Shown one piece after another: positions 14,620-32,374 of a DNA stretch of 64,000 nucleotides. The stretch lies in the NCBI GenBank assembly GCA_964624065.1, contig CAZUWF010000003.1, forward strand, positions 89,471-153,470. Direction: 5' to 3'. Origin of the DNA: an uncultured Bacteroidales bacterium. GTDB lineage: Bacteria; Bacteroidota; Bacteroidia; Bacteroidales; UBA7960. Both the position numbers and the translations under genes were made by a program. Within the stretch, counting starts at the first letter, position 1; every line of letters begins with the position of its first letter. A model generated the notes under the pieces. That model was not told the DNA's origin, did no database searches, and saw only the letters and a list, made by a program, of their open reading frames with translations.

Positions 14620-14632
14620 AAAAATACCCCAA

Positions 14633-17002
14633 ATGAGTAATCAAAGCAAGGAGTCAGTTTTTATATTAGGCTTGCTTGTCCTTGCCAACATATTTTCCCT
14701 TCCAAATCAAGTGTTTTCTCAGGGTCTTGCGGTGGGGCAATGGAGGCATCATTTACCCTCAAGCCAAGTTGTTGCCGTAACCGAAACCCCAGCCAAAATC
14801 ATAGGTGCAACACCATACGGATTGGTAGTATTCAACAAGGAAGACAAAAGCCTTGAAAAGATCGACAAGGTTAAGGGGCTATCAGGTTTTGGCATTACGA
14901 GCATCGCCTACTCCCAGCAGCTTGACGCTGTTGTTTTGGGGTATTCCGATGGTGCCATTGACGTTGTGAAGGACGGTCAAGTTTCCAACATTGTGGACAT
15001 TTCAATGTCGTCAATAATTGGAAGCAAGAAAATTAATAAGATTACGATTCAGGGAACCAGGGCTTTTCTGGCCTGCGACTTTGGGATTGTAAACCTTGAT
15101 TTGGAAAATAACCTAATTCGCGATTCGTACTTCATCGGGCCTTTCGGGAGTTTTGTTGAGGTTCGGGAAGTCGCCTTTTCCGCCACACATATCTTTGCTG
15201 CCACCAACGCCGGTATGATGTACGCACCAGTTCAGGATGTTAATCTGGCCGACTTCCAGGTTTGGCAAAAGGTGGTAGTTTCGGGAAACACGTCCGAAAA
15301 AGTGATGGCAGTTTCTCAATACGGCAATAATGTTTTGGCAGTTGTTAGGGTTGCCAACACTGACAGGTTGTTCTTCAGGCAAGCAGGGGGTTGGCAACCA
15401 GTGACCCTTGGGGCAAACCCGTACAACTATCCAGAGATTTACAGGATTAGGGAAAGCAAGGGCAAGCTATTGGTTTCGACTGCTTGGTTGCTCGATGTCT
15501 TGAATTTTGACGGTGCAACCCACCAATTCGTTAGGGAGGAGTACGTTCAGGTTTACCCAGGAGGAGAGGAGGTTCGTGCCTTGGATATGCTAATTGACAA
15601 TAGCCAGCAACTGTGGATTGCCGACAACAACGTTGGATTGGTTCGACGTGTCTCCTTGTCTTCTTACGAACGGATATTGTTGAATGGCCCAAGAACCAAC
15701 AGGGCCTTTGGCTTGGCGTCAGGTGGCGGCAACCTTTGGGTTGCCCCCGGAGCTATTCTTTCTGACGGCAATAACACTTGGAATAGCGATGGGGTTTTCG
15801 TTTTTGGAAACGAATCGTGGAAAAATTTTCACCGCTCTGCATTTCCTTTGATGCAACCCTTGCTCGATATTATCAGAATCGCGGTTGACCCCACAAACCC
15901 CGAAAAGGTGTATGCCGCGGCGACTTCAGAAGGATTGCTTGAATTCAAAAACCAGCAGCCTCACACCGTTTGGGGTGAATCGAACAGCCCGCTTCAAAGG
16001 ATTAATGGAATACCGGGTAAACCGCCCATCAGGTTGGGAGGATTGGCAGTGGACAATAGTGGAAACCTTTGGGTTACAAACTCCCACTCAACCAACCCTG
16101 TAGTTGTAAAGAAACCCAACGATCATTGGCTCGGTTTTGTGAGCAACGGGCTTGTAGTGCTCAACCAGATGGGTAAAATTGCCATTGACCGTAACGGGCA
16201 AAAGTGGGTTCTAATGCCCCGAAACGGCCTTTACGTAATGAAGGAAAACAATCTCAACAATGCCTCGGGATTTGCCGAGAGGAGGCTTAATACGGCACCG
16301 GGAAACGGTGGATTACCATCCAATAACGTGTTTTCGATTGCAGTTGACCACGATGGTTACGTTTGGGTGGGCACCGATCAAGGGGTTGTGGTATTCTATT
16401 CTGCCGGGCGGGTTCTTTCTACTCAACCTGTTGATGCCACCCGTTTGATTGTTCAAGAGGGGAACTTTGCCGGGTATCTCCTGGAAAATGAAACGGTGAA
16501 CACTATTGCCGTTGACGGATCGAACAAAAAGTGGTTTGGAACCACCAGGTCGGGCGCATTCCTGCAAACTTCGGATGGAAGGCGCAACATACTGCATTTT
16601 ACAAAGGAAAACAGCCCTTTGCCATCAAACAACGTTCTTGATATTGCAATTAATGGAGAAACGGGCGAGGTGTTTTTTGCCACCGACCAAGGGTTGGTGT
16701 CCTTTAGGGGGTTTGCCACCGAGGCTCCTCAGGTCCATACCGATGTGTACGCCTTCCCCAATCCCGTAAGACCAGGATATACCGGTTACATTTCGGTAAA
16801 AGGACTTGTAAGGAATTCTAGAATTAAAATTACCGACATTGCCGGAAATCTGGTTTACGAAACAATAGCCGAGGGTGGGCAGGCAATTTGGGACGGCAAG
16901 GATCTTTTCGGAAGAAGACCGGCCACAGGGGTTTATCTTGTGTTTTCTTCAAATACCGACGGCAGTCAAACCGAGGTAACAAAGATATTTTTTGTAAACT
17001 AG
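14633..17002 (+). CDS. Beta-propeller (two-component-regulator-propeller-like) protein with a T9SS C-terminal domain; PorZ-like candidate
   Basis: The ATG at 14633 gives signal peptide MSNQSKESVFILGLLVLANIFSLPNQVFSQ. Repeated N..W(V/I)(A/G)T..G propeller-blade motifs are present. The C-terminus is AFPNPVRPGYTGYISVKGL..IKITDIAGNLVYE..WDGKD..GVYLVF. The PorZ assignment itself is an inference (about 0.45). Confidence 0.7.
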   Translation: MSNQSKESVFILGLLVLANIFSLPNQVFSQGLAVGQWRHHLPSSQVVAVTETPAKIIGATPYGLVVFNKEDKSLEKIDKVKGLSGFGITSIAYSQQLDAVVLGYSDGAIDVVKDGQVSNIVDISMSSIIGSKKINKITIQGTRAFLACDFGIVNLDLENNLIRDSYFIGPFGSFVEVREVAFSATHIFAATNAGMMYAPVQDVNLADFQVWQKVVVSGNTSEKVMAVSQYGNNVLAVVRVANTDRLFFRQAGGWQPVTLGANPYNYPEIYRIRESKGKLLVSTAWLLDVLNFDGATHQFVREEYVQVYPGGEEVRALDMLIDNSQQLWIADNNVGLVRRVSLSSYERILLNGPRTNRAFGLASGGGNLWVAPGAILSDGNNTWNSDGVFVFGNESWKNFHRSAFPLMQPLLDIIRIAVDPTNPEKVYAAATSEGLLEFKNQQPHTVWGESNSPLQRINGIPGKPPIRLGGLAVDNSGNLWVTNSHSTNPVVVKKPNDHWLGFVSNGLVVLNQMGKIAIDRNGQKWVLMPRNGLYVMKENNLNNASGFAERRLNTAPGNGGLPSNNVFSIAVDHDGYVWVGTDQGVVVFYSAGRVLSTQPVDATRLIVQEGNFAGYLLENETVNTIAVDGSNKKWFGTTRSGAFLQTSDGRRNILHFTKENSPLPSNNVLDIAINGETGEVFFATDQGLVSFRGFATEAPQVHTDVYAFPNPVRPGYTGYISVKGLVRNSRIKITDIAGNLVYETIAEGGQAIWDGKDLFGRRPATGVYLVFSSNTDGSQTEVTKIFFVN

Positions 17003-18598: not shown

Positions 18599-18632
18599 CC
18601 AAAAAAAAGAAACCTGCTTGTTGGCAGGTTTC
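18599..18632 (-). terminator. Rho-independent terminator closing the sulfur/Hdr-like operon
   Basis: On the minus strand: GAAACCTGC-caacaa-GCAGGTTTC followed by T8. It lies 24 nt after the stop of the QmoC-like gene. Confidence 0.75.
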
Positions 18633-18655
18633 TGGCTGTATAACATATTAGCCAC

Positions 18656-19705
18656 CTATGTTGTAGTTTTCAATTTTTCGAAATACATTGCAAAGGACCT
18701 ATACAAGAAGTGCGTCCATTTGCCGAAAGGGACTATAATTAGAGCCCACTGAACAAGTACCGTCAAATGAAAAAGGTATAGCCAAATATTGGTTTCAATA
18801 AGGTTTAAATCAATCATGGTTCTGACCAAGAAAGCCGAGAAAGCCATCATAAGCAACCAAATAACGAAAAACCAATCTGATGGCTGCGAGAACTTGCTCT
18901 GCTCCTTGTTTTTCTTTATGCGGTCTTTGACAAAAACGGCGGTGAGGCCGAAAAGAGTAATGCTCATAACGTACCCCAAAAGAACAACAAAGGTATTTGT
19001 AGTTCTGAACCAATCTAGTGCTACCGTAGTAAGCAGTAGTCCAAGATAACCCAGCACTATAATCAAGTGCATGAGCCACCGCGAATAGCTATCGTTGCAC
19101 TTTAGGGTTCTTTTTTGGGTAAACATATGCTCGATCAAGTCTTTGAAACCCAGAATATAGTTCGACAACTTGATTTTTATGCCAGGTTTAAGTATGATAA
19201 AGTACCACATACGAGCTAGGTTGGGGATGAATATTAGAGTAAAAACACCAATTATCGCCCACATTTCAAATTTATGTCCTGCGCCTATAATTGCATCAGG
19301 GTCAAAGTTTTTTGACGAAGCAAAGAAAACAACCCCAATTGCAACCAGCAAGAAAGCCACGATTGTAAGGGGAAGTGATTTGTATAGGAGGCCAGAAAGC
19401 CCGGTCCAGTCGTATTTTGCAGTTAGCCAGCGGCGTATTGCCATCATCAATTCTCCCGGATTGGCCTCCCTGGGGCAATTGGATGCGCAATCGCCGCAGT
19501 AATAGCAGAGCCAGGGATCAAGCGATGATTTTAACTGATTTTCCAGACCCAAAACAGAGTATCTGACAAGAGAGCGAGGGTATGCGTGGTTTTTATCTGT
19601 AAGAGAACAAATGGCAGTGCAGTTACCGCAATTATAACAAGCATTGAAATCATTGGCGCCAAACTTTCTTAATTCTTCGCCAAAATATGGGTTAACTATT
19701 GACAT
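18656..19705 (-). CDS. QmoC/HdrE-like membrane subunit: N-terminal 2x[4Fe-4S] ferredoxin module fused to a ~6-TM (NarI/HdrE-like) domain
   Basis: CYNCGNCTAICS and CYYCGDCASNCPREA cluster motifs, followed by six hydrophobic helices carrying His residues (AGHKFEMW, RWLMHLII, LYLFHLTV, KWTHFLY). The start lies 4 nt after the upstream stop. Confidence 0.7.
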   Translation of the reverse strand: MSIVNPYFGEELRKFGANDFNACYNCGNCTAICSLTDKNHAYPRSLVRYSVLGLENQLKSSLDPWLCYYCGDCASNCPREANPGELMMAIRRWLTAKYDWTGLSGLLYKSLPLTIVAFLLVAIGVVFFASSKNFDPDAIIGAGHKFEMWAIIGVFTLIFIPNLARMWYFIILKPGIKIKLSNYILGFKDLIEHMFTQKRTLKCNDSYSRWLMHLIIVLGYLGLLLTTVALDWFRTTNTFVVLLGYVMSITLFGLTAVFVKDRIKKNKEQSKFSQPSDWFFVIWLLMMAFSAFLVRTMIDLNLIETNIWLYLFHLTVLVQWALIIVPFGKWTHFLYRSFAMYFEKLKTTT

Positions 19706-19709
19706 GGCT

Positions 19710-21908
19710 CTATTTTTTCATTTTGTAGGTGTAGTACTCTTCGTCTTCGTCCATTCCATCGGGCACAACAAGGCTGTACTTGTTCATCGTCATTAGGTGG
19801 TACATAACCGTTTGCTTGTCTATGCCAGTATTTTCTGCAATCTCTGATACCGTTTTGCTCGAACCATTGATTGCTCCTGAAATGGCTTTCCAAACCTGCG
19901 GGTATTCCTTCATGCTCAAGGCCTCTTCTATCAATCCATCTTCTGCAGATTTCTGGGTTTCTGATAATTCAACCATACCTGCAAAGCCGTCAATCATTCC
20001 TTCTATTTCCTTGTTGGTGTATTGAATGATTTCTATTGCATCTTCGGGGCAGACGGGGGCACAAATGCCGCACCCAGAACAGGTTGCCTTGTTTACCGTT
20101 GCAATTTCCTTGTCGTTTACAAGGGTTCTCTTCAACGAGTCGTAGTCGCACACCTCGGCACACTTGCCGCACCAGGCACATTTGTCTGAATTAATTCTTG
20201 CTATAACCGGAGGGATTGAAATGGTTCCGGTTTTAATCAAGGAACTTATCTTGGAAGCCGCCGCCAATGAAGATTGGACCGATTCGGTAATGTTGCGGGG
20301 CCCTTGGCACGAACCGCCAATAAACACACCTTTTATTACCGTTTCCACCGGTTTTAGTTTCGGGTGTATTTCGTTGAAGAACTTGTCGTTGCCAATTGGA
20401 ATCTTGAAAATTTCCGATATTTCTTGGCTGTCTTGCCGTGCAACCATCCCTGTTACCAAAACTACCAAGTCGGCTTCAAGCTCAATCTCCATTTTTGAGG
20501 TAAGGTAATCCTTTACTTTTATTGAAATGGAATTGCCTTTTGATACGAGTTTCGGAGGTTCTTTTTCTTCGAATTTTATGAAAATATCGCCTTGCGAAGA
20601 GGCCTTTTGGTATAGAAGTTCTTGTTTTCCGTAAGTTCTTACATCCCTGAAAAGGTGGAAGGATTTCAATCCCGGAAATTTTTCGATCGAAATTAAGGAC
20701 GAATGGATTGCAGCCGAGCAGCAATAACGCGAACAATGCTTGTTTTCGCCATTGGTTTGCCTGTTGCCAACACAATATATGTAAGCCACCCTTTTTATTT
20801 CCCTGTTTTTATATTTTAGCGAAACCTCGCTAACTTCGAGCAACCGCCGGTAGTGGGGAAGTGTGATCACATTGTCTAGTTCCTCATACCCGAATTCGCC
20901 TTTGGCAGGAAGGTAGCTGTCAAAACCGGTAGTTACCAAAACTGTACCTGCAATCAGGCTGAGATGTTCTACCCTTTGGTGAATGTTAATGCAATTGGAA
21001 TACTTGTCGAGGTATTCTTTTTCGTCCTTCAAAGCCTCGGCGTCAACCACGGGAATATCGGGCAGGGCCTCCGAATAGTTCTTGTAAATTGCCTTGCGGG
21101 TAGTTAATCCGAAATTGAAAGGGTCGGGTAGGTTTACCGGACAATCCTCAATGGCTTGGTTTATGTCGCAGCCATCCTTGTGCCAGGTAACGTACCTTGG
21201 CCTAATACTAATGTTGACGTTGAAAGAACCAAGGCTTCCGGTAACCTTTTCGATTTTTGCACCGGTAAAAAGGCTAATGTTCTTCTCGGCCTTCATTTCG
21301 TCGTAAAGGCGTTTTATTACTTCCTTCCCTTGTTGGTCACCCATAAAAAGCTTTCCAACCTGTGCAACCGGACCCCCAACAAAGTGGTCTTGCTCTATTA
21401 CGTAAACCTCGTTGCCAAGGCGAGCCAGCGATACGGCAGCACGCATTCCGGCAACACCAGCGCCTACTACAAGTACGGATTTCTTGGCAGGAACCTCAAT
21501 GTTTTCTAACGATTCCGAATGAGACACCCTGTTTATTCCGGCCCGGATGAGCCCCACTGCCTTTGTGCTGGCATCCATTGGCCTGTCGGAATGGGGCCAC
21601 GAACATTGCTCCCTAATATTTACCTGAACGTAGTTGGAGGGATTCAGACCCGCCCTTTCGGCCACGTTTCTAAATGTATGGAGGTGCAGCTTGGGAGAGC
21701 AAGAGGCCACCACTATTCCATCAAGTTTTTTTTCCTTAATGTCGTTTATCATTATGTTTTGGCTTGAATCGGCGCAAGCAAACATAATATCTGTTGATAC
21801 TTCAACTCCTTGATGATCTTTCAACAACCTTCCAATTTCCTCCACCCTAACGTAGTCGGATATGTTTCCCCCGCAATGGCAAATGTAAACTCCAATTTTT
21901 TCTTTCAT
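19710..21908 (-). CDS. HdrA-like (QmoB-like) flavo-iron-sulfur protein with C-terminal 2x[4Fe-4S] and a terminal winged-helix-like segment
   Basis: HdrA N-terminal domain IGVYICHCGGNISDYV..VVASCSPKLH..NIREQCSWPH, FAD fold VLVVGAGVAGMRAA, and CSRYCC. Ferredoxin motifs CAWCGKCAEVC and CSGCGICAPVCP. The C-terminal tail SKTVSEIAENTGIDKQTVMYHLMTMNKYSLV resembles an ArsR/MarR-type wHTH. Confidence 0.75.
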   Translation of the reverse strand: MKEKIGVYICHCGGNISDYVRVEEIGRLLKDHQGVEVSTDIMFACADSSQNIMINDIKEKKLDGIVVASCSPKLHLHTFRNVAERAGLNPSNYVQVNIREQCSWPHSDRPMDASTKAVGLIRAGINRVSHSESLENIEVPAKKSVLVVGAGVAGMRAAVSLARLGNEVYVIEQDHFVGGPVAQVGKLFMGDQQGKEVIKRLYDEMKAEKNISLFTGAKIEKVTGSLGSFNVNISIRPRYVTWHKDGCDINQAIEDCPVNLPDPFNFGLTTRKAIYKNYSEALPDIPVVDAEALKDEKEYLDKYSNCINIHQRVEHLSLIAGTVLVTTGFDSYLPAKGEFGYEELDNVITLPHYRRLLEVSEVSLKYKNREIKRVAYIYCVGNRQTNGENKHCSRYCCSAAIHSSLISIEKFPGLKSFHLFRDVRTYGKQELLYQKASSQGDIFIKFEEKEPPKLVSKGNSISIKVKDYLTSKMEIELEADLVVLVTGMVARQDSQEISEIFKIPIGNDKFFNEIHPKLKPVETVIKGVFIGGSCQGPRNITESVQSSLAAASKISSLIKTGTISIPPVIARINSDKCAWCGKCAEVCDYDSLKRTLVNDKEIATVNKATCSGCGICAPVCPEDAIEIIQYTNKEIEGMIDGFAGMVELSETQKSAEDGLIEEALSMKEYPQVWKAISGAINGSSKTVSEIAENTGIDKQTVMYHLMTMNKYSLVVPDGMDEDEEYYTYKMKK

Positions 21909-21930: not shown

Positions 21931-24696
21931 TTATACGGGTATTTCTCTTTCTACCAGCTTCATGTAGCTCGCTGCTTCGGTGGCGGCGCATCCTGCCGAG
22001 AGGATCGAATCGGGAATGTCTCGTGGACCGGCAACCGTTCCAGCCATGAAAACACCTTCAATGGAAGTGCGGGAAGGGCTGACAAGTTCATCAACCTGTT
22101 TCACGTAATTTAGTTCGTCCAGCTCAAGGGTTTGCTTTTTGAAACTGCTTGCAATCTCATTGTTTGGTAATGCACCAATTGACAAAACTACAAGGTCATG
22201 TTTTGCTTCCTTTAGCTTGCCAGTAGTTACATCTTCGTACCTCAAAACAAGGTCGCCACTACCGTCTTCCTTTTCATTGATTTGTGCAATCTTACCCTTG
22301 ATCATATTAACTCCCATCCGTTTTGATTGCTGCATGAATTCTTCGTAACCCTTGCCGAATGCGCGAAGGTCTATGTAGTAAATGGTAATGTCGGCAAGGG
22401 GTAGGGCACCCATCAAAAGCTGCGCCTGCTTTATGGAATACATGCAGCAAACCTGTGAGCAAATTGGATTATTGGTGCATTCGCTGCTACAAGGTCTGCT
22501 GTTTTCGATTGACACATCGCGCGAGCCGGTGCAAAGCACGTAGGCTACGTTGCTTGGAACCTTTCCATCGCCAGGTCTCAAAACGTTGTTGAATGGTCTT
22601 GTTGGGGCAATTAGCCTTTCCATTTGAAGGGCGTCAATCACGTTGGGATAAGTGCCAAATCCATACTCTTTTTTTCCCGACGGTGGAAATAACCTAAAGC
22701 CTGAGGCCAAGATTACCGACCTGACGTCAACGTCGTGGATTTCGGTTTTTTGGGAGAAGTCAATGGCTTCGGCCGGGCAAGCGGCGATGCATTGGTGACA
22801 TTCGCGACAGTTGCTGCAATCGAGGCACCTGCTTGTGCTATCGAGAACCTCGACCTCGGTAAAGGTGCTTTCAACTTCATCAAAATCTTTTATGCGCACG
22901 GCAGGGTCGCGGTGCGCCTGTTTTGTTTGTGGCTTGAATTGAATGTTGGGACGGCTCAAAACCTTTGCGGTATCAACCGCAGGCAGCTTGTCCCCAGCTT
23001 CGTAATCTTCGATGTTTAGGCCTGCCAGGAACTTATCGATGTAAAATGCCGCCTTCTTTCCCAGTCCGGCTGCTTCGATGATTGTTGAGGCTCCAGTAAC
23101 AGAGTCGCCGCCTGCAAAAACATAGGCGAGTGATGTTTGAAGGGTTTTTTCGTTTACTACAATGGTGCCGTTTTTGTTGAGGTTTAGCTCGCTTTCGAAA
23201 ACATCGGTTGAGGGGTTAAGTCCCACCGCCTCGATAACCCAATCTACTTTCTCTGTGTATTCGGAACCTTTAACTTGAACCGGTCTCCTCCTACCACTTT
23301 CATCGGGTTGGCCAAGTTCCATCTTAGCCAGGGTTACCCCTTCAAGTTGCCCGTTTTTGCCCAAGAATCTTATTGGATTTCGCAGGAGCAATAGCTTTAC
23401 ACCCTCTTCTTCCGCCTCTTTTATTTCGGGGGCAAAGCAAGGCATTTCTTCACGGCTACGGCGGTAAACCACCGTAACTTCGGCCGCACCGAGACGCACC
23501 GAGGTCCTGGCGGCATCAATTGCTGTGTTTCCACCACCGATAACCATAACTCGCTTGCCCTTTAGCGCGTTGGTTTTCTCTTGTATGGAGTCACGCAAAA
23601 AGTCGAGGCACGAGACCACCCCGTTCAATTCCTGCCCTTCTATGTTTAGCTTTGTGGTTTTGTGGGTTCCCACAGCAACGAATACCGCATCGAACCCATC
23701 TTTTTTCAACTTTTCTATACTTTCTACCTTGTGGTTTACCACAGTTTGGACTCCAAGGGATGTTACGTTTTTTACATCCCTTTCAACAATGTTTTTCGGA
23801 AGCCTGAACTCGGGCAGGCTCAAACTCAACATTCCTCCCAGAATGGGAGCCGCCTCAAAAATTTTAACCTGATGACCTTTTAAGGCCAAGTGGTAGGAGG
23901 CTGTCAATCCTGATGGCCCTGAGCCGATTACTGCAATTTTCTTACCTGTTGGTTCTTTCTTTTTAACTGCTGGTGGTTCGGGATACTTTTGGTAAAAATG
24001 GTCTGCGAAGAAACGTTTGGTTTTGCGTATGTCAACCGTGCCCTCGAGCAGGCTACGGGTGCATGACGACTGGCAAGGCGCGTAGCAAGCCCTCCCGAGG
24101 CTGCCCGGAATAGGAATGTCTTCCATGTGCAGCTTCATGGCCTCATCGTACTGGCCGTTTCGAACCAACGAAACATAACCGTAAGCCTTTGTACCCCCGG
24201 GGCATCCGCCAATGCAAGGTGCGGAGGTGTCTTGCCTGTCTATGTTGGCAATTCGCGGGTTTGCAAGGTTGAATGGTATGTAAGCCACCTTGCGAGCCGA
24301 AAGGTTCAGGTTGTAATCATCGGGTCTTACCTCTGGGCATACTATTTCGCAACTTTCGCACCCCGTGCAATTTTCGGCAATCACGTACCTTGGCTTCTTA
24401 ATTGCTCTTACCTTGAAGCCCGATTCGGTTTTTTCCACCTCTTCAACAGTGCTGTTAAGCATTGTGGTAATATTTGGATGCCTGGCTGTTTCCGACATTT
24501 TCGGGGTGGTAATGCAGGCTCCGCAGTCGAGGGTTGGAAAAACCTTGCTCAATTGAATCATTTTTCCACCAATCGACAACTGCTTTTCTACCAGAAGCAC
24601 TTTGTAATCCATTTGGGCAAGGTTGAGAGCCGCCTCTTGTCCGGCCACACCGCCGCCAATCACCAGGGCGTCAAATTTTGTCTTTTTTGTCAGCAT
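21931..24696 (-). CDS. HdrA-like flavoprotein with an embedded GltD/NfnB/SudA-like NAD(P)H-binding oxidoreductase module
   Basis: HdrA part: ALVIGGGVAGQEAA..KVFPTLDCGACI..CTGCESCEIVCP ... CSQVCCMYSIK..IDLRAFGKGYEEF..GVFMAGTVAGPRDI. Inserted part: KKIAVIGSGPSGLTASYHLA..GGML..LPEFRLPK, KRVMVIGGGNTAIDAART..YRRSREEMP and VFAGGDSVTGASTII, typical of glutamate synthase small-subunit-like proteins. Confidence 0.8.
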   Translation of the reverse strand: MLTKKTKFDALVIGGGVAGQEAALNLAQMDYKVLLVEKQLSIGGKMIQLSKVFPTLDCGACITTPKMSETARHPNITTMLNSTVEEVEKTESGFKVRAIKKPRYVIAENCTGCESCEIVCPEVRPDDYNLNLSARKVAYIPFNLANPRIANIDRQDTSAPCIGGCPGGTKAYGYVSLVRNGQYDEAMKLHMEDIPIPGSLGRACYAPCQSSCTRSLLEGTVDIRKTKRFFADHFYQKYPEPPAVKKKEPTGKKIAVIGSGPSGLTASYHLALKGHQVKIFEAAPILGGMLSLSLPEFRLPKNIVERDVKNVTSLGVQTVVNHKVESIEKLKKDGFDAVFVAVGTHKTTKLNIEGQELNGVVSCLDFLRDSIQEKTNALKGKRVMVIGGGNTAIDAARTSVRLGAAEVTVVYRRSREEMPCFAPEIKEAEEEGVKLLLLRNPIRFLGKNGQLEGVTLAKMELGQPDESGRRRPVQVKGSEYTEKVDWVIEAVGLNPSTDVFESELNLNKNGTIVVNEKTLQTSLAYVFAGGDSVTGASTIIEAAGLGKKAAFYIDKFLAGLNIEDYEAGDKLPAVDTAKVLSRPNIQFKPQTKQAHRDPAVRIKDFDEVESTFTEVEVLDSTSRCLDCSNCRECHQCIAACPAEAIDFSQKTEIHDVDVRSVILASGFRLFPPSGKKEYGFGTYPNVIDALQMERLIAPTRPFNNVLRPGDGKVPSNVAYVLCTGSRDVSIENSRPCSSECTNNPICSQVCCMYSIKQAQLLMGALPLADITIYYIDLRAFGKGYEEFMQQSKRMGVNMIKGKIAQINEKEDGSGDLVLRYEDVTTGKLKEAKHDLVVLSIGALPNNEIASSFKKQTLELDELNYVKQVDELVSPSRTSIEGVFMAGTVAGPRDIPDSILSAGCAATEAASYMKLVEREIPV

Positions 24697-24713: not shown

Positions 24714-25157
24714 TTAGTTATCAATTGCCTTAATCCCGCCTGCCATTTCTGTTTCAATATCGCCCAGCTCGAGCAATATTTCGCTGAAGGCCTCCATATG
24801 TCCGGCAAACGGAACCGCGCAAACAGAGCAAATGGCTGCCATTCTGATCCGCTTCGGACTAATGTTGTTCTGTTTCATTATAGCCTGAGATCGGGTAATG
24901 ATATCGTTTGTGAAATCAGGACATTTATGGCTGTATGAGCATTCATGACCATCGGCGGCAATGAAAACACCATCGAATTTTTGCTTGAAAGCGTGCATGA
25001 TCCACCTTGTTTTTATACCTGAGGAGCAGGGCAGGTTGATCACGTAAACTGACGGTGAATAGTGTACCTTGCGCAAACCTGCCAGGTCTATTCCGGGATC
25101 AGAAATCTTATCGGTCGAAAAAACCAATATTCTGGGTTTATAACTTTTGTCGGCCAT
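24714..25157 (-). CDS. MvhD/FlpD-like iron-sulfur subunit (methyl-viologen-reducing hydrogenase delta-subunit family)
   Basis: 147 aa. ILVFSTDKISDPGIDLAG..VINLPCSSGI..FDGVFIAADGHECSY and the overall Cys pattern fit the FlpD/MvhD family. It lies immediately upstream of an HdrA-like gene. Confidence 0.75.
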   Translation of the reverse strand: MADKSYKPRILVFSTDKISDPGIDLAGLRKVHYSPSVYVINLPCSSGIKTRWIMHAFKQKFDGVFIAADGHECSYSHKCPDFTNDIITRSQAIMKQNNISPKRIRMAAICSVCAVPFAGHMEAFSEILLELGDIETEMAGGIKAIDN

Positions 25158-25220: not shown

Positions 25221-25472
25221 TTAAGCTTTTCTAAGGTACAGCCGCGAAAAACTGTCCTCGTCAACAAAGCCAAGAAACTCGTGATCCATCTTTTGGCACC
25301 ATTTGGGTATGTCTCTTTTTGTCCCGGCATCGGCCGAGAGTACCTCCATCACCTCGCCCGATTCAATGTCGCCAATTCCTTGTTTTGCTGCCAGTAGTGG
25401 TCCTGGGCAGGCTGTTCCTCTTGCGTCGATTTGTTTTGCTACTGTTAGTGCTTTTAATTCTTGGGATGTCAT
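25221..25472 (-). CDS. TusA/SirA-family sulfurtransferase (cytoplasmic sulfur carrier)
   Basis: 83 aa. IDARGTACPGPLLAAKQ carries the CPxP active-site Cys motif. GEVMEVLSADAGTKRDIPKWC is family-typical. Confidence 0.85.
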   Translation of the reverse strand: MTSQELKALTVAKQIDARGTACPGPLLAAKQGIGDIESGEVMEVLSADAGTKRDIPKWCQKMDHEFLGFVDEDSFSRLYLRKA

Positions 25473-25504: not shown

Positions 25505-25918
25505 TTAGACCAAAAAGTGGACGTCGGCTTCTTTTACCGCATCAATATATTCGCCAATTCCGATGATATCGTCAACCATATCAATGAAATCTTCGATCTT
25601 TGAGCCTCCCCAAATTCGGCCGGCAAGGCTGCAAACGTAAATTTTTACGTTTGTCATCTCCCTGGCCATTTCGAAGTACTCCTTCCAGGTAGGGCTGTTT
25701 AGTTCCTTGAGCTTGTCAATGCAGGCTTGAAGGTTTTCGTTGTCTTCGCTAAGGTACTCCCTGCCGTTTTCGTTACCTTTTACAAACCATTGAGCCGCTT
25801 TTAGGTGAACGTAAACTTCCACATCCATATCTTCGGCTGCGGCCCCGCTTAGCAAAACACCAGCGAAGGTTAGCTTGTCAAGCCCACCCGAAAACAATCC
25901 TATACACATTTTTGCCAT
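25505..25918 (-). CDS. DsrE/DsrF/DsrH-like family protein
   Basis: 137 aa. MCIGLFSGGLDKLTFAGVLLSGAAA and the conserved-Cys segment VKIYVCSLAGRIWG fit the DsrE-like family. Confidence 0.65.
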   Translation of the reverse strand: MAKMCIGLFSGGLDKLTFAGVLLSGAAAEDMDVEVYVHLKAAQWFVKGNENGREYLSEDNENLQACIDKLKELNSPTWKEYFEMAREMTNVKIYVCSLAGRIWGGSKIEDFIDMVDDIIGIGEYIDAVKEADVHFLV

Positions 25919-25943: not shown

Positions 25944-26444
25944 TTAATCTCCACATCCACCTGATGCCTTTTGTGTGGGTGCGCTAGCTTGTTGAGAACC
26001 TGACCCTACTTCAACCTTTTCGGGAAAAGAAAGCTGCCAGTTTTCAAATCCTCCTTCAAGCACCCTTACATCGCCATATTTCATTAGCCTTAGGTTTTTT
26101 GCCGAAAGGGCCGATCGTTGATGGGTGTTGCTGTATAGCACCACGGTTTGTCTCCTGTTCGAAAGAAGTTTCGAGAACTCCAGGGTTCCCCTTGGAATGT
26201 TTATTGCTCCAGGAATATGCCCTGCTTCAAACTCCTCGGGTTCTCGCACATCTATTACTGATAATGGTGCCGTGCCCAATTCCATCAATTGGTTCACCTC
26301 TTCGGCCACAACAAAATCAACGTCTTTCAATGCGGCTTCGAGCATAGTATTTGTGTTGCTGTAAACGGTTTTGTCTGGATTGAAGCATCCGGACAACACA
26401 AATGTCAAGATAACCGCCGACAGGATTAAATTTAGATTTTTCAT
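25944..26444 (-). CDS. Rhodanese-like lipoprotein lacking the canonical active-site Cys but ending in a ...ASGGCGD tail
   Basis: Lipobox VLSGC. Rhodanese fold (VIDVREPEEFEAGHIPGAINIPRG). The active-loop position reads VVLYSNTHQRS, with Ser where Cys is expected. A low-complexity linker precedes the C-terminal SGGCGD-stop (nt 25947-25964). Confidence 0.75.
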   Translation of the reverse strand: MKNLNLILSAVILTFVLSGCFNPDKTVYSNTNTMLEAALKDVDFVVAEEVNQLMELGTAPLSVIDVREPEEFEAGHIPGAINIPRGTLEFSKLLSNRRQTVVLYSNTHQRSALSAKNLRLMKYGDVRVLEGGFENWQLSFPEKVEVGSGSQQASAPTQKASGGCGD

Positions 26445-26464: not shown

Positions 26465-27283
26465 CTATTTTGTTTTATACTCGTTCCAGCCCCCGTCGTA
26501 TATCTTAATGTTACGATAGCCAAGACCCTTCAAAGCAAGGTAAACAGTGCCCGTTCGCGCACTAGAAGTACAATAAAGAATTATCTCCTTATCTTTGACG
26601 ATCTTGCTGTCTGCCAAAACTTTTTCGATTTCAGCTTTGGTTTTCAGCTGAGATTTTGCTTCGTTAATGAAGCTTTTGTTTTCCACATTAATTGAACCAG
26701 GGATGTTGCCAGCCTTGTGTTCGTTAGGTGCCGAAACATCGATAATTATGGTGCCGGGATTATTTAGCTTCCCATTTACATAAGCGTATTCGACAAATAT
26801 TGACGGCTTCAACTTTGGAGTTAAGGTTATGGGCGTGGGGGTTACGGGGTTCCGCCCTACCGCCCCACGGGCTTCCCTCCAAGCCGTCATATGACCATCA
26901 AGAATCTTGACCTTATTGTACCCGAGATAGTCGAGCACCCAATACAGGTAGGTTGAGTAAACATACCTTCCATTGTCGTAGATAATTATGGTTTTTGCAG
27001 GATCCACTCCCTTCGTGCCAAGGACTTTTGCAAGCTCGGCAGGGCTATTGAGCAAACCTTCAATTGTTCCGGGCTTGCATAGGGCTTTGTATTCGATGTT
27101 AACCGCATTTTGAATGTGCACTTTTGCAAAGTCTTGCGCGCTTACGGTGGCAACAAAAACAGTGTTGGCATCGCCAACCAGCTTAACTGCATCACGGGCA
27201 GAAATTATGTCAAACTGAGCATTTGCCGAGGCAAGGGCCAACACCAAGATTATTGTGTTTCCAAATTTTCTTAAATTGTCCAT
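26465..27283 (-). CDS. Exported tandem-rhodanese sulfurtransferase (thiosulfate sulfurtransferase-like)
   Basis: Signal peptide ..ALASANAQ and two rhodanese domains. Catalytic loop ILYCTSSARTG in the second domain. GHIQNAVNI/GNIPGSINV motifs. Confidence 0.8.
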   Translation of the reverse strand: MDNLRKFGNTIILVLALASANAQFDIISARDAVKLVGDANTVFVATVSAQDFAKVHIQNAVNIEYKALCKPGTIEGLLNSPAELAKVLGTKGVDPAKTIIIYDNGRYVYSTYLYWVLDYLGYNKVKILDGHMTAWREARGAVGRNPVTPTPITLTPKLKPSIFVEYAYVNGKLNNPGTIIIDVSAPNEHKAGNIPGSINVENKSFINEAKSQLKTKAEIEKVLADSKIVKDKEIILYCTSSARTGTVYLALKGLGYRNIKIYDGGWNEYKTK

Positions 27284-27295
27284 TTCAAAAATCGA

Positions 27296-28315
27296 TTAAA
27301 ATTTTGCTTGCAATTGAACCACAAAACGGTCATTATTTATCTCAGTGGGTTTTTCTGCCTTGTACAGGTAGTTGACTTGCAATCTCGTCCAATCGTTGAA
27401 GAAGTAGTTTAGGCCGAAAGTCATAGTGCTTTCCTTGTAGTTTTGGTCGTTACCCGAGTCGAAGAAATCAAATTTAAAAACCGGTTCAACGTTCCATTTT
27501 GTTTTGTATGAAACTGCCGCCCATCCACCATTTCTTTCTTCTCCAAGTACAATGAGCTCGCCCCCGCATCCACCGCCTAGGTCCCTGTTGTAGTCGCCCT
27601 TGTCGTAAATGTACTCGCCCATCAACGAAAACCCTTGGTATTGAGCCTTAAGTTCGGCACCAATTGTTGTGCGGGTGTCGGTATTGTTGTTGTACGAAGG
27701 GTACGAGCCGCGAAAGCTACCTCCAACTTGGACAAAGTCAAGTGGCCTGAACAACACTCTTGCCACCAAATCCTTTTTTTGGTTGTTGTCAAAGCGCTTC
27801 AAGCCACTTCCGTTCATTATGCCCAATTGATACTGCAGTTTAGTGGAGTTGTCACCCCCCATAAAAACCAAACCGAAATCGCGAAACGGCGCCACGGTTT
27901 GCAACACTGCGGTAGAGCGGAAAATTGTTGGCATATCGTTACAGGCAAGGTTGGTCTCAAATCCGAAAGGAGTTTTGAAGGTACCCACCGAAACCCTGGC
28001 CCATTTAAACCTGTTGTAAGAAATGAAGGCATCCAGCAGGTAGGGGTTGTTGTTAGCGTCCAAGAATGGGCTTAGCTCAACAACGGCATAAAAGGAAAAG
28101 TCGTAGGGGATTGCTCCCTGAACGCCAAGCCTAACCCTTTCGAAAGAAAAGGAAGTTGTAGTTTTCGGGTCTTTTACCACCGCATCAAATTGAGATTGTA
28201 TGAACCCAAACACCGTAACGCCTTCTTCCGAGGGTGCGTCTCCGCACCCTTGTGCCGAAATTCTCGGTACTGCAAAGGCCGAAAGCAAGAGTATAACCAG
28301 CAGTGTTTTTTTCAT
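27296..28315 (-). CDS. Outer-membrane beta-barrel porin (porin O/P-like)
   Basis: The ATG at 28315 gives MKKTLLVILLLSAFAVPRISAQ. Alternating amphipathic beta-strand pattern throughout, with a C-terminal ..VVQLQAKF (terminal Phe). Confidence 0.7.
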   Translation of the reverse strand: MKKTLLVILLLSAFAVPRISAQGCGDAPSEEGVTVFGFIQSQFDAVVKDPKTTTSFSFERVRLGVQGAIPYDFSFYAVVELSPFLDANNNPYLLDAFISYNRFKWARVSVGTFKTPFGFETNLACNDMPTIFRSTAVLQTVAPFRDFGLVFMGGDNSTKLQYQLGIMNGSGLKRFDNNQKKDLVARVLFRPLDFVQVGGSFRGSYPSYNNNTDTRTTIGAELKAQYQGFSLMGEYIYDKGDYNRDLGGGCGGELIVLGEERNGGWAAVSYKTKWNVEPVFKFDFFDSGNDQNYKESTMTFGLNYFFNDWTRLQVNYLYKAEKPTEINNDRFVVQLQAKF

Positions 28316-28345
28316 TTTTCGAAGGGAATTTAAAATGTTATGCTG

Positions 28346-28353
28346 CAAATTTA
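28346..28353 (-). promoter_or_regulatory. Bacteroidota-type -7 promoter element (TAAATTTG) upstream of the porin gene
   Basis: The minus strand reads TAAATTTG (TAnnTTTG consensus) about 30 nt upstream of the porin ATG. No clear TTTG -33 element is present. A C8/T6 tract lies just upstream. Confidence 0.3.
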
Positions 28354-28393: not shown

Positions 28394-29359
28394 TTAATTG
28401 GTTACGAAGGGTAGGTTTCTTGGCACTTCTGTACCGTGACCCCAACGATTTTCGGTCCAAGTTGAACTGGAGTGGTTAAGCTTGTTCATGCCAAACACCA
28501 TACTGTGGGCATTGTATCCAATTACCCTCAAAAAGGCAGAAACCGCTCCTGATGTTTGACCTGTATAGCAGTAAGTTACAACTGATTTTGCTGGGTTATT
28601 AAACTTAACCGTGTTATCGCCAACAAGCATTGGGCGTATTCTGAAAGATCCGGCAATGTGTCCGAAACCCAAAAAATGATTTTCGGGGAAGTAGTTGTTA
28701 ATAAAGTAGTTTGAAGGGTTGGCAAGCACCGCTTCTGGAGTTACGCTTTTGAATCCTTCGGCCAATACTGCTGCAACTCTGTTATTTAGAATTGTGGCCG
28801 GATCAGTGGAGTTGGAGGTAAATGTTGGGCTTGGATAGGTTAAATTTGTTGGTGCGGCGGCGGTAGACCAGTTGGCATGACCAGCTGAAATATTGCCAGT
28901 TAGGCTGTTCCATCCTCTGGGGTGGTTTGCAAATGTTGTATGCCAGGAGCTCATTCCCCACTTTAACGCTTGGGCTGTTAAATATCCTCTAAGTCTTAGT
29001 AGGCCTACCAAATAAGTTGCCTGGTTGCCAGAATAACAAACGACCAAAATTGGTTTGTCAGCAATGGCTGCCTCTGCCAGAACGTTGTTCCAGGCCACGT
29101 TTTTGGCGCCCTGAATTCTTCCTTGTGCAAAATCGGCGGGATCCCGAACGTCAATAATGTACCTTCCACTTAAATTGCCATCAGCGGGAGGCATTATTAC
29201 AAAGCCGCTAATAATTGTGTTGATGTCGAGGTTTTGAGCAACCAAATAGTCTGTTAATGCTTTTTGCGCATCAAATGTAGGGCCCTCGTCTTTACATCCG
29301 GTGAAAACAAAAGTTGCCACCAGGATGATTGTTAAAAAACTTGCTTTTAATTTTTTCAT
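28394..29359 (-). CDS. Double rhodanese-like lipoprotein, probably surface exposed
   Basis: The ATG at 29359 gives MKKLKASFLTIILVATFVFTGC-KDEG (lipobox followed by K-D-E). Two rhodanese-like domains have Cys loops VVCYSGNQA and TYCYTGQTS. Confidence 0.75.
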   Translation of the reverse strand: MKKLKASFLTIILVATFVFTGCKDEGPTFDAQKALTDYLVAQNLDINTIISGFVIMPPADGNLSGRYIIDVRDPADFAQGRIQGAKNVAWNNVLAEAAIADKPILVVCYSGNQATYLVGLLRLRGYLTAQALKWGMSSWHTTFANHPRGWNSLTGNISAGHANWSTAAAPTNLTYPSPTFTSNSTDPATILNNRVAAVLAEGFKSVTPEAVLANPSNYFINNYFPENHFLGFGHIAGSFRIRPMLVGDNTVKFNNPAKSVVTYCYTGQTSGAVSAFLRVIGYNAHSMVFGMNKLNHSSSTWTENRWGHGTEVPRNLPFVTN

Positions 29360-29448
29360 TTTAGTAGGTTTTAGGTTGGGTTCGTAAATTTTTTTGTGTT
29401 GGCTTGGAAATTCGCAGAACCCTTTAATCAAATCTCCTCGCTGTTTTT

Positions 29449-29937
29449 TTAGTCTCCGCAGCCTCCGCTTGTTTTGGCGGCAGGTTCATTTTTTTCTATC
29501 TCGGGATCCCAACTAATTATTCCACCTTCAAGGTTTTTGACGTTGGTGTAGCCTAGTTGTTTGAGGGTTAGGGCTGCAAGAATTCCCCTAAAGCCCTTTT
29601 GGCAATAAATGATTATTTCGTTACCTCTTTCGGGTTCGTAGAAAAATTCACCCTCCCAGTAGATGCTGTCGTTTATTTTGAATTCTAGCAACCCCCTTGG
29701 GATGTTAAACGCTCCGGGGATGGACACTTGCTCGAATTCCTTTACTTGCCTCACATCTATAAGGTAAAAGTCTTCTCCAGTGTCAATCTTTTCCCGCAGG
29801 TCAACAACGGTAATTTGCTCCACGAGCGATTTGTGTGCGTTAGCAATTTCTTCACCGTTTTCGAAAATGGCCGTGCAGGAGCCTGCAATTAGCGCCACCA
29901 AGGCAAGGCCGATTAGTATTTTTGTGGTATTCTTCAT
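29449..29937 (-). CDS. Rhodanese lipoprotein with a catalytic Cys and a ...TSGGCGD C-terminal tail
   Basis: Lipobox IAGSC. LIDVRQVKEFEQVSIPGAFNIPRG. Catalytic loop IIYCQKGFRG. A linker precedes the C-terminal SGGCGD-stop (nt 29452-29469). Confidence 0.8.
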   Translation of the reverse strand: MKNTTKILIGLALVALIAGSCTAIFENGEEIANAHKSLVEQITVVDLREKIDTGEDFYLIDVRQVKEFEQVSIPGAFNIPRGLLEFKINDSIYWEGEFFYEPERGNEIIIYCQKGFRGILAALTLKQLGYTNVKNLEGGIISWDPEIEKNEPAAKTSGGCGD

Positions 29938-29950
29938 CTGGAGTCTTGTT

Positions 29951-31165
29951 TTAGTAAGCAGTGAACCTTCCGGTTTTCTCGTTCCACTTTACAAACCAGT
30001 ACCATATCAACAAAATGCAAACAACCACCCCAAAAGCACCGGAGTAGCCTATGTAATCTGGCAAGAACATTTTGAAGCCAGCCTGATGGGGGATTATTTT
30101 ATTGACTAGCGGCACTATTGCCTTGTTTGATAAAGGCATTATTAGAATAAATGCCAATGCCGAGAACCAAAGCTTAACCTGACCCTCGCCAACGCGCCAA
30201 AGGGTTCCAGCAGCGCAACCCCCTGCTACGGTCATTCCTAGCCCGAATATGAAACCTCCTATCAAGGCCTTCGCCCAGAAATGGGAGAAAACCCAAGTCA
30301 TTTCCTGAGTTCTAATTCCGGCATCTCCAATGCCAATTCCGAAGTACTTGATGGCAGTGAAGCCAAAAAGGGTAACCACCATACCGGCAATTATCCCTGT
30401 AGCTCCCGATGCCTCGCCGGTCATGAACGGATCGCGGAAGGCTTTGACGATACAAAAGCGTGATCTCTGGCTAATCAATCCCATTAACAGCCCGATAATT
30501 ATGTACCAAGACATAATTGGATTATTGGGAGCGTATGTGTAAGATAAAATTAAAATAAGTGCAAACACTACCCATCCTATATAAACCTGAGTTTTGCCCT
30601 TGGCGGGTTTTGCAGCGAGCCACGTGTAGCTTTTGCCCGAACTAAGCATCGGGAAGCGCTCCATTTCCCACATAAGGTACTTTAGAGCAACTATAACTCC
30701 AACAAAAAGTCCAACGGTAAAAATTATAGCCCCTCCCGAAAGTGCAGGAACTCCGCTAAAAAACGATGCTACGGTGCAACCCAAACCTACGGTTGCACCG
30801 ATGGCCATCAACCCACCGCCGATAAAACCCTTTGCCATTTCACCCTTTGGAGGCACCCTCAGGGCAAATTCTTTTGAGAAAAGTGCTCCGATAAATGAGC
30901 CTACGATAAGCATTAAGGCTAGCATGGCAAAGATGCTGGAGCCCATTGGTGTGGTGCCTTCAAAGGCCGAAAAGCCAAGAAGCCCGTAAAGGTTCTCACC
31001 CCAGTTGTTTATCCCTCCACTGGCACCCCAGGGGCTGTTAATGGCAAAAAGCACAATATTAAGCGCCCCAAGAATTACGGCTCCAACCCAAACAGGCCAG
31101 TGTTTTGCAAAGAAAGTGGCCCAAAGGTGACCGAAAATCCCCGTTTCCTTAGGTTTTTCTGACAT
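29951..31165 (-). CDS. YeeE/YedE family inner-membrane sulfur (thiosulfate) transporter
   Basis: 404 aa and polytopic. Two half-repeats carry conserved Cys-containing Gly-rich segments (GATVGLGCTVASFFSG and TVAGGCAAGTLWRVGEG). It is adjacent to a TusA-like gene, as in known YeeE-YeeD/TsuA-TsuB pairs. Confidence 0.85.
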   Translation of the reverse strand: MSEKPKETGIFGHLWATFFAKHWPVWVGAVILGALNIVLFAINSPWGASGGINNWGENLYGLLGFSAFEGTTPMGSSIFAMLALMLIVGSFIGALFSKEFALRVPPKGEMAKGFIGGGLMAIGATVGLGCTVASFFSGVPALSGGAIIFTVGLFVGVIVALKYLMWEMERFPMLSSGKSYTWLAAKPAKGKTQVYIGWVVFALILILSYTYAPNNPIMSWYIIIGLLMGLISQRSRFCIVKAFRDPFMTGEASGATGIIAGMVVTLFGFTAIKYFGIGIGDAGIRTQEMTWVFSHFWAKALIGGFIFGLGMTVAGGCAAGTLWRVGEGQVKLWFSALAFILIMPLSNKAIVPLVNKIIPHQAGFKMFLPDYIGYSGAFGVVVCILLIWYWFVKWNEKTGRFTAY

Positions 31166-31678: not shown

Positions 31679-32374
31679 ATGGAGTATTCGATTTTTGCCA
31701 ATAGTTGCAAGAATGTTGTTCCCAGCTGCAGGTGTTTTGATAAACTCACGCCTCCGGAAATGGACCTGATTCTTGCCAATCAAGTGGAATTGTCTTTTAA
31801 AAAGGGCGAAATTATTTGCAAGCAGGGTTCTTTAGCCCCGCATATAATTCTTCTAACCAAAGGCTTGGTTAAGGCCTATATCGAAGGGGGTAATTCCAAT
31901 TTGGTGCTTAAAATCATTTCGGGCGGGAAATTCATTGCCCTCTCTTCTGCCATGGAGGGGAATAGCGTTTTTAATTATACCGCCCAGGCCTATGTTGATA
32001 GCACAGTAATGTTTATAGACATAAATGTTTTTAGGGGAGTTTTAAAGTCAAACCCCCTTTTTGCTACCGAAATATTCAATGTTCAAAGTGGAAATGCTAG
32101 GCAAATCTATGGTCGGTTTTTTTGCCTGACCAAAAAGCAAAGTTATGGCCGCCTCGCCGACTTGCTGCTTTGTCTGGCCGACAGTGTCTATTACAAAACC
32201 GTTTTTGAACTGGAGCTAACCAGAAAAGAGCTTGCCGAGCTATCAGGATTGTCGCAGGAGAGTGTGGTTAGAATACTCAAAAACTTTAAGGACGATAGGC
32301 TAATCGGAACCAGCGGAAAGCAAATAGAAATTATTGAGTACGAGAAATTGCAGCGAATTAGCCAAAAGGGCTAA
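31679..32374 (+). CDS. Crp/Fnr family transcriptional regulator with an N-terminal Cys cluster
   Basis: A cNMP-binding-like beta-roll (FKKGEIICKQG...LVKAY) and a C-terminal HTH (TRKELAELSGLSQESVVRILKNFKDDRLI). N-terminal Cys residues C10, C17 and C19 (NSCKNVVPSCRCF). Confidence 0.85.
   Translation: MEYSIFANSCKNVVPSCRCFDKLTPPEMDLILANQVELSFKKGEIICKQGSLAPHIILLTKGLVKAYIEGGNSNLVLKIISGGKFIALSSAMEGNSVFNYTAQAYVDSTVMFIDINVFRGVLKSNPLFATEIFNVQSGNARQIYGRFFCLTKKQSYGRLADLLLCLADSVYYKTVFELELTRKELAELSGLSQESVVRILKNFKDDRLIGTSGKQIEIIEYEKLQRISQKG

Follow-up and report, generated by a model that had tools for sequence, protein, structure and literature searches.

HdrA flavoproteins are the core of a main electron-bifurcating enzyme family. 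We analysed a 64,000-nt stretch of DNA (the window) from an uncultured Bacteroidales bacterium (assembly GCA_964624065.1, contig CAZUWF010000003.1, positions 89,471 to 153,470), which carries on its minus strand an hdrL-type gene (P0001, 21931..24696, an open frame) encoding a 921-aa protein with an HdrA core and a nested GltD-type module. This nested design has already been published, as HdrL (2009), as HdrA9-11 of ANME-1 (2022) and as type III HdrA (2025). HdrL was defined as a fusion of HdrA with a glutamate synthase small subunit that has an NAD(P)H site and is encoded beside mvhD (Strittmatter 2009; Pereira 2011), and later work has adopted the definition. In the archaeal HdrA9-11 and type III proteins, a ~500-aa NfnB/GltD-like insert likewise interrupts the inserted ferredoxin domain. 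A second bifurcation site inside the insert was suggested for the ANME-1 HdrA-NfnB fusions (Chadwick 2022), and modelling of type III HdrA led to the proposal that the insert shuts ferredoxin out and lets electrons from NAD(P)H enter via the ferredoxin clusters (Microbiol Spectr 2025); in both proposals, the branch that serves ferredoxin is turned over to NAD(P)H by the GltD insert. With the design already published, the domain architecture alone is an ordinary finding. New here are the exact insertion point, the permuted, StnC-like nature of the insert, a complementarity between Cys61 of HdrL and the N-terminal domain of a second HdrA, and the size and variants of a conserved gene cluster.

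The window's HdrL is a bacterial member of the HdrL/type III HdrA class: it has an HdrA flavin adenine dinucleotide (FAD) domain with the associated motifs, a GltD/NfnB-type insert in the ferredoxin domain and an adjacent mvhD gene. An earlier reading of the DNA letters (the sequence-only reading) had described a frame that starts as HdrA, switches to another module and returns to HdrA, which is borne out by the motifs that it quoted, by alignments to sequences in the Protein Data Bank (PDB) and by an excision test. The protein contains GGGVAGQEAA, FPTLDCGACI, CTGCESCEIVCP, IAVIGSGPSGLTASY and VMVIGGGNTAIDAAR, together with YRRSREEMP, FAGGDSVTG, CSQVCCMYSIK, DLRAFGKGYEEF and GVFMAGTVAGPRDI. 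Its Pfam matches are FAD_oxidored at residues 9-46, Fer4_20 (the iron-sulfur domain typical of GltD, DPD and NfnB) at 158-236, Pyr_redox_2 at 253-541 (E 5e-51) and Fer4_7 at 629-652, while NCBIfam assigns residues 155-657 to PRK12771 and glutamate-synthase-small-subunit families, and residues 623-913 plus an N-terminal stretch to HdrA2. In PDB sequence searches, residues 9-154 correspond to HdrA 8rvu 153-298 without a gap, residues 625-917 to 8rvu 296-577, and residues 156-559 align to NfnA, StnC and NfnB. When residues 155-624 were excised, the remaining 451-residue protein gave a single contiguous match to the HdrA2 profile (residues 7-443 against positions 139-561).

An AlphaFold2 model built on an alignment of 44 orthologues has a predicted local distance difference test score (pLDDT) of 89.6 and a predicted template-modelling (TM) score of 0.85, and in Foldseek comparisons it matches both folds: the resolved HdrA chain 8rwn_A with a TM score of 0.91 on the target, and NfnB (5jca_L/4ylf_B) with TM scores of 0.79-0.80 on the target and root-mean-square deviations of 2.3-2.8 Å. 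These results confirm HdrL as an HdrA flavoprotein with a complete GltD-type module nested in its ferredoxin domain. The module had been placed at 22896-24204 (residues 165-600); it is real, and its boundaries are now refined to residues 155-624 (22825..24234, minus strand) by Pfam, NCBIfam, alignments, conservation and Foldseek.

The insertion point lies within the ferredoxin domain itself. The first part of the core (residues 1-154, 24235..24696, minus strand) aligns without gaps to residues 146-290 of HdrA 5odc_A and contains the GxGxxG motif of the FAD-binding start (14-19), FPTLDC58xxC61 and the first ferredoxin motif (C110/113/116/120). The second part (residues 625-921, 21934..22824, minus strand), delimited by alignments, conservation and the excision test, contains the second ferredoxin motif (C630/633/636/640) and the remainder of the HdrA thioredoxin-reductase-like domain with the cluster motif C722...C746/C750/C751. 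Alignments to 8rvu and 5odc show that the HdrA hallmarks FPTxDCxxC and CxGSRD...CSxxCC are both kept. Both CxxCxxCxxxCP motifs of the ferredoxin domain are present, one before the insert (C110-C120) and one after it (C630-C640), and the insert occupies the loop between them. We judged the conservation of ligands on the 44 orthologues, which come from many phyla: seven of the eight ferredoxin-motif cysteines are invariant and the eighth, C630, reaches at least 90%, C58 and C61 are invariant, and so is every predicted cluster ligand of the insert; over the protein as a whole, all predicted cofactor ligands are conserved. Because both cysteine motifs are retained and conserved, the ferredoxin domain is interrupted rather than replaced, and a replacement by the insert is ruled out; the sequence-only reading had the position right but saw the ferredoxin domain as displaced. 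Within the HdrA cluster motif region, we also noted a short insertion (residues 728-741, 22474-22515) with two extra cysteines, C736 and C740, which is not conserved in orthologues and whose residues 731-741 have a pLDDT below 50.

A protein of this kind could in principle be an assembly or frameshift artefact that fuses hdrA to gltD. We found no point in support of this explanation, to which we give hardly any credence: the frame is open, a nested order could not arise from a simple end-to-end misjoin, and colinear orthologues in hundreds of genomes rule it out. A homology search returned thousands of matches, the best 120 of which, all 912-954 aa long, cover at least 98% of the query at 68-82% identity. 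Orthologues that are colinear over their full length (900-950 aa) occur in many independent assemblies, complete chromosomes included, and relatives of HdrL are found in at least 543 species genomes (one genome per species), with TusA, MvhD, a second HdrA (HdrA′) and a QmoC-like protein as the partners. Three nested forms recur: one of ~900-920 aa, to which the window's protein belongs, one of ~1110-1140 aa that keeps the HdrA N-terminal domain, and one of ~1500 aa with a second HdrA core. The spread is patchy: in the phylum, hdrL occurs in one of 401 genomes sampled, which is the window's own, and in the order in 15 of 301; it is missing from the sampled genome of the same genus (n=1) and from those of the same family (n=2).

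We found that the insert departs from canonical GltD and NfnB in its order. Its iron-sulfur subdomain contains C161, C165, C204, C208, C212 and K227, followed by an FAD fold (GSGPSG, 258-263), an NADPH fold (GGGNTA, 387-392) with YRR (411-413), and FAGGD (527-531). The canonical opening reads "R..F.EV....EA.RCLxC-x4-C-x3-CP", whereas the insert begins "...TSAPC161IGGC165P". The missing segment (RIKDFDEVE...SRC624LDC627, residues 591-627, 22816..22926, minus strand) stands, from R601 onward, at the C-terminal end of the insert, with RCLxC at 621-627. Joining residues 591-627 to residue 157 onward restores the C-x2-C-x4-C-x3-CP spacing, and the rejoined sequence aligns contiguously to NfnB 4ylf_B 10-173 and to GltD 7mfm_I 14-189. 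Because its opening segment is displaced to its C-terminal end, the insert is, by these alignments, a circular permutant of canonical GltD/NfnB. In the displaced segment, C624 and C627 are invariant, and we infer by analogy with DPD and NfnB that they complete one cluster with C161 and C212. The same displaced segment is found in StnC (8oh5_C) and in two Bfu-type NfnA structures (9bov_A, 9n5u_A); therefore, the permuted module probably predates its insertion into HdrA. The Stn structure paper nowhere uses the string "permut".

StnC and the Bfu-type NfnA are also the best sequence and fold matches of the insert (E 1e-108 to 1e-112), with 44-48% identity compared to ~35-40% for NfnB. They share with it a lysine-ligated cluster, YRR in the second Rossmann fold and a GltD core followed by the RCLxC segment. 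Lys227 is invariant, and its aligned column holds Lys170 in StnC and Glu in NfnB. According to the Stn structure paper, cluster C7 of StnC has Lys170 where NfnB has Glu, and the StnC FAD is non-bifurcating; in Bfu-NfnA, the FAD oxidises NADPH and passes electrons singly via the Lys-ligated cluster, whose lysine is conserved. Y411-R412-R413 is conserved in at least 90% of orthologues, and the corresponding region reads YRR in StnC and in both NfnA chains. From GGGNTA, YRR and the homology to NADPH enzymes, we infer that the insert uses NADPH rather than NADH. The known modules and the window's differ in their surroundings: in Sporomusa ovata StnABC and Bfu-type NfnABC, the module carries a fused NuoG/Fdh-like domain and supplies electrons to a bifurcating core of the HydBC type, whereas here it is nested in HdrA.

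These comparisons bear on the possibility that the insert bifurcates at its own flavin, like NfnB, so that each chain would have two bifurcation sites. Identity of 40% and a TM score of 0.8 to NfnB speak for it, as does the published suggestion for the ANME-1 HdrA-NfnB fusions. Yet position 227 is Lys rather than Glu, RCLxC is displaced, the match to StnC and NfnA is closer and includes the permutation, the StnC FAD does not bifurcate, and the operon has no NfnA-like partner gene. An NfnB-type bifurcating insert is thus disfavoured, and we regard it as quite improbable. By sequence, the nearest kin of the insert are the non-bifurcating NADPH-input modules of StnC and Bfu-NfnA; the GltD/NfnB-like module of the sequence-only reading holds as a complete GltD-type NAD(P)H module, but bifurcating NfnB is not its nearest relative.

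The HdrA part of HdrL is trimmed. Its core spans HdrA positions ~146 to ~566-577 in the alignments to 5odc and 8rvu, and the protein has neither the HdrA N-terminal cluster domain nor the C-terminal 2x[4Fe-4S] ferredoxin domain of type I HdrA; therefore, the core is QmoA-like. No QmoA model is among its NCBIfam matches. The HdrL of Desulfobacterium autotrophicum and other Desulfobacterota is the same type of fusion, with an NAD(P)H site and an mvhD neighbour, but classical HdrL is larger (~1110-1140 aa with the N-terminal domain, ~1500 aa with a second HdrA core) compared to the trimmed, QmoA-like 921 aa of the window's form, and it stands beside dsr, fdh or hdrABC genes rather than beside tusA, hdrA′ and a qmoC-like gene. 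HdrA9-11 and type III HdrA are archaeal proteins that go back to type I HdrA of full length and have hdrBC, mvhADG or fdh genes as companions, whereas the window's HdrL is bacterial, carries GGGNTA and YRR of the NADPH type, and has a quinone-linked partner and an association with TusA.

The missing N-terminal domain is found in the neighbouring gene. Downstream of hdrL, hdrA′ (19710..21908, minus strand; HdrA2 profile match over residues 1-640) encodes a 732-aa second HdrA with an N-terminal cysteine domain, an FAD domain, a C-terminal 2x[4Fe-4S] domain and a ~90-aa helix-turn-helix-like tail. The N-terminal domain has the conserved cysteines C10, C12, C45, C70 and C102, and the inserted domain is without cysteine cluster motifs. 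In the solved HdrA complex, Cys197 ligates the N-terminal-domain cluster of the partner protomer. C61 of HdrL aligns with Cys197 of 5odc_A. HdrL thus has the Cys197 equivalent without the N-terminal domain, and HdrA′ has the domain without the cysteine, which is absent at that position from all 45 HdrA′ orthologues (0/45), though all of them keep the N-terminal cysteine domain. Natural fusions of ~1470-1530 aa (P0124, P0125, P0127, P0134 and others; genomes G495 and G571 of the same order) join the nested HdrL and then a second HdrA core in one chain, in the order N-G-C-N-C, and therefore support a functional HdrL-HdrA pairing. Together, the Cys61/N-terminal-domain complementarity and the natural fusions argue for an obligate HdrL/HdrA′ heterodimer, like QmoA/QmoB. 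The tail of HdrA′ (residues 640-732, 19710-19985) is winged helix-turn-helix-like (TVSEIAENTGIDKQTVMYHLM...) and stands in place of QmoB's MvhD-like domain; it has no Pfam match, and among the long orthologues (640-780 aa) it is conserved to 85% at only a few positions.

The remaining partners flank this pair on the same strand. Directly upstream of hdrL, mvhD (24714..25157, minus strand; Pfam PF02662, E 2e-24) encodes a [2Fe-2S] electron-transfer protein of the FlpD family with conserved C44, C73, C79, C110 and C113. It is preceded by tusA (25221..25472, minus strand; Pfam PF01206, E 1.5e-20), which encodes a sulfur carrier with the motif C22-P-G-P, C22 being conserved among orthologues. Downstream of hdrA′, a qmoC-like gene (18656..19705, minus strand) encodes a 2x[4Fe-4S] domain and a membrane domain, with two 4-Cys motifs (eight conserved cysteines), six predicted transmembrane helices and the conserved histidines His213, His313 and His332; it matches NF038018 over its full length with 147 bits.

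We compared 80 kept loci with near-full-length HdrL matches, which span Bacteroidota, Spirochaetota, Acidobacteriota, Gemmatimonadota, Chloroflexota, Actinomycetota, Bacillota, Ignavibacteria and Proteobacteria. We found that tusA and mvhD lie upstream of hdrL in 73 of the 80 loci, across more than 10 phyla, the exceptions being mostly contig ends or reading-frame calls, and that hdrA′ and the QmoC-like gene lie downstream in most loci with sufficient sequence. The tusA-mvhD-hdrL-hdrA′-qmoC-like gene cluster is therefore conserved, and the gene linkage behind the partners that had been proposed from the sequence, a QmoC-like subunit and sulfur carriers, holds. In a Bacteroidales locus with an extended operon (L036, 13468-14730) and in Desulfofundulus thermobenzoicus (L056, 7144-8806, with a DsrE gene after the swapped genes), the membrane subunit is swapped for an HdrC-like protein of ~100 aa and a CCG-domain HdrB-like protein of 315-319 aa. 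The swap is seen in at least two genomes, and matches of HdrC size (~100 aa) stand at the same position in several other loci. Since the qmoC-like gene can be exchanged for hdrC and hdrB, the cluster comes in membrane-bound and soluble versions. Among cultured organisms, Tenuifilum species and Desulfofundulus thermobenzoicus DSM 14055 have it. In the literature, we found no description of a tusA-mvhD-hdrL-hdrA-qmoC cluster, nor of Hdr with YedE and rhodaneses in Bacteroidales, which does not exclude that one exists.

The gene order and subunit types, with A-like, B-like and C-like components, resemble qmoABC, so the cluster might be a canonical QmoABC variant serving adenylylsulfate (APS) reductase in sulfate reduction or sulfite oxidation. 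In sulfate reducers and green sulfur bacteria, QmoABC likewise combines a short and a long HdrA-like flavoprotein with an HdrC-like membrane subunit carrying iron-sulfur clusters and haem b. The replacement of QmoC by HdrBC-type proteins is known from Gram-positive sulfate reducers and parallels the swap described above; QmoABC lineages and relatives of the window's cluster both show it. QmoA, however, operates with AprAB, in a sat-aprBA-qmoABC locus, and we found neither aprA nor dsrA in the window's genome (2.39 Mb, 100% complete) and no apr or sat gene adjoining the cluster. Unlike QmoABC, the cluster carries an NADPH module on its A subunit, a separate MvhD and a conserved TusA, and its QmoC-like protein scores under the curated qmoC cut-off. 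Service to APS reductase is ruled out by the lack of aprA and dsrA, and this explanation as a whole appears very improbable.

The coupling of an NAD(P)H site and an HdrA flavin in one polypeptide, as the sequence-only reading had it, is sound in view of the domain mapping and the invariant ligands, though it had been published before; wiring of NADPH to the HdrA flavin within one chain is, at the level of sequence, well supported. We propose the following electron path. NADPH would deliver a hydride to the FAD of the insert, which would act as a plain dehydrogenase flavin, as in StnC and Bfu-NfnA, rather than bifurcate. Electrons would then pass singly via the two [4Fe-4S] clusters of the insert and the pair in the split ferredoxin domain, to reach the flavin system of HdrA. 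This system would be the HdrL/HdrA′ heterodimer, in which Cys61 of HdrL would ligate the cluster of the N-terminal domain that only HdrA′ supplies. One exit would lead from the CC-motif [4Fe-4S] cluster (C722/C746/C750/C751) via the iron-sulfur clusters and haem b of the QmoC-like subunit to the menaquinone pool, and a third port would be formed by the C-terminal ferredoxin domain of HdrA′ and MvhD. In methanogens, the HdrA C-terminal 2x[4Fe-4S] domain is the docking point of MvhD. The whole would most likely be a Qmo-like machine with three ports, in which flavin-based bifurcation or confurcation couples NADPH and menaquinone to a third partner.

Gene order makes sulfane sulfur on TusA/DsrE the best candidate for the third partner, with ferredoxin as the alternative. 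The standard potentials are about -320 mV for NADPH, -74 mV for menaquinone and -400 mV for thiosulfate/sulfite plus HS-. It would make thermodynamic sense for NADPH oxidation to be split between menaquinone, the downhill branch, and a low-potential acceptor, either ferredoxin or a thiosulfate-derived persulfide; for example, NADPH could reduce menaquinone, an exergonic step, and so drive the unfavourable reduction of such a persulfide. Bifurcation with the quinone pool and a persulfide couple, as first suggested from the sequence, is a reasonable hypothesis for which synteny offers indirect support. We put forward more tentatively, as possible rather than expected, that the cluster represents an unrecognised class of NADPH-dependent bifurcating or confurcating enzymes whose partners are menaquinone (or a disulfide) and the sulfane sulfur of TusA/DsrE.

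The main competitor is a linear, non-bifurcating NADPH:menaquinone (or menaquinol:NADP+) oxidoreductase, in which the HdrA flavins and MvhD would be wires or remnants and TusA an accessory for regulation or assembly. Such an enzyme would account for the kinship of the insert with plain NADPH-input modules, its nearest relatives, for the link to quinone through the QmoC-like subunit and for the lack of HdrB in the operon. A simple NADPH:quinone enzyme, however, would find a second complete HdrA with a C-terminal ferredoxin domain and MvhD superfluous, the five genes are kept together across phyla, some proteins fuse HdrL to the second HdrA, and HdrC and HdrB can take the place of the membrane subunit with the other subunits kept. 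We prefer the three-port device because a linear enzyme would not need a second HdrA, MvhD and TusA conserved together, and we consider the linear enzyme unlikely, if by a smaller distance than the other alternatives.

Several points weigh against the three-port device. The main weakness is that the window's version is without an HdrB/CCG subunit and thus has no recognised site for persulfide or disulfide chemistry, and the role of TusA is read from gene order alone. The score of the QmoC-like protein, 147 bits in a full-length match, compares with a curated cut-off of 300. In methanogen HdrA, the branch that carries the insert here is the low-potential (ferredoxin) one, where NADPH as a mid-potential donor fits poorly in a classical HdrA scheme. 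The preference for NADPH is itself deduced from GGGNTA, YRR and homology, and for the archaeal type III proteins NADH has been argued (Microbiol Spectr 2025). To our knowledge, no HdrL-type protein, nor any member of the bacterial cluster, has been biochemically characterised. With all of this taken into account, a bifurcating or confurcating three-port device has, in our judgement, about an even chance, while the reading taken whole, an HdrL/type III HdrA in a three-port Qmo-like complex with the electron path above, is the best overall explanation and one that we hold as somewhat probable.

The hdrL cluster forms the end of a longer operon on the minus strand, which starts with a second tusA (tusA2, 31175-31462) and continues with a YedE/YeeE(TsuA)-like transporter (29951-31165), two rhodanese lipoproteins (29449-29937 and 28394-29431), an OprO/P-type porin (27296-28348), two further exported rhodaneses (26465-27283 and 25944-26444) and a DsrE-like gene (25505..25918; Pfam PF13686/PF02635), followed by tusA, mvhD, hdrL, hdrA′, the qmoC-like gene and a terminator-like hairpin with a T-run (18608..18633). 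The tusA2, transporter and porin genes were assigned by family searches, and the four exported rhodaneses by Pfam and signal peptides, of which three are of the lipoprotein type and one is ordinary. A Crp/Fnr-family regulator is encoded divergently (31679..32374, plus strand; family search), and the intergenic region upstream of tusA2 contains the palindrome TTGACCGTCGTCAA (TTGAC-N4-GTCAA, Crp/Fnr-box-like) at 31532-31545; a homologue of this regulator lies upstream of the cluster in most Bacteroidota loci. Among the 80 related loci, the extended import operon is found only in the window, L036 and L046. Sulfur for TusA/DsrE could come from these upstream porin-rhodanese-YedE import genes.

A link between an Hdr-type redox complex and sulfur carriers has a precedent in sHdr, which is described (PMC11094781) as an Hdr-related complex genetically tied to TusA, DsrE and rhodaneses, and to that extent the two systems are alike. 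They differ in that sHdr has HdrB1/B2/C1/C2 and lipoate-binding proteins, and is without a GltD insert, MvhD or a QmoC-like subunit; the sHdr-specific parts were not seen among the genes scanned in the window's operon.

Some features of the exported proteins deserve mention in their own right. Both small rhodanese lipoproteins (25944-26444 and 29449-29937) end in SGGCG[D/E], a tail that is kept in the window, L036 (3487-3966 and 6877-7404) and L046 (4921-5397 and 8312-8815) and that brings to mind the GGCGG arm with which SoxY carries sulfur. In the 166-aa rhodanese lipoprotein, the usual active-site cysteine position is a serine (LYSNTHQRS), so that the cysteine of the tail may be the working thiol. 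The porin has a cysteine directly after its signal peptide (AQGCGD) and a GGGCGG stretch, and AQGC is kept in L036 and L046; a porin beside sulfur enzymes has been reported for Dissulfuribacter. Beyond the operon, the window encodes a PorZ-like type IX secretion beta-propeller (14489-17002), consistent with a Bacteroidota origin, and a class A penicillin-binding protein (12349-14619).

The window offers a compact bacterial HdrL with a clear cofactor inventory, together with a model of the HdrL/HdrA′ heterodimer via Cys61, in an unusually explicit context of porin, exported rhodaneses, YedE-type importer, TusA and DsrE. If the proposed link between NADPH, quinone and carrier-bound sulfur is true, it would explain the handling of sulfane sulfur in many anaerobes that do not reduce sulfate, and it would touch on an old question about Qmo-type complexes, namely how quinol is coupled in them to a second donor. 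The cluster would then represent a widespread cytoplasmic route for sulfur reduction or for redox cycling of sulfur carriers in fermentative anaerobes.

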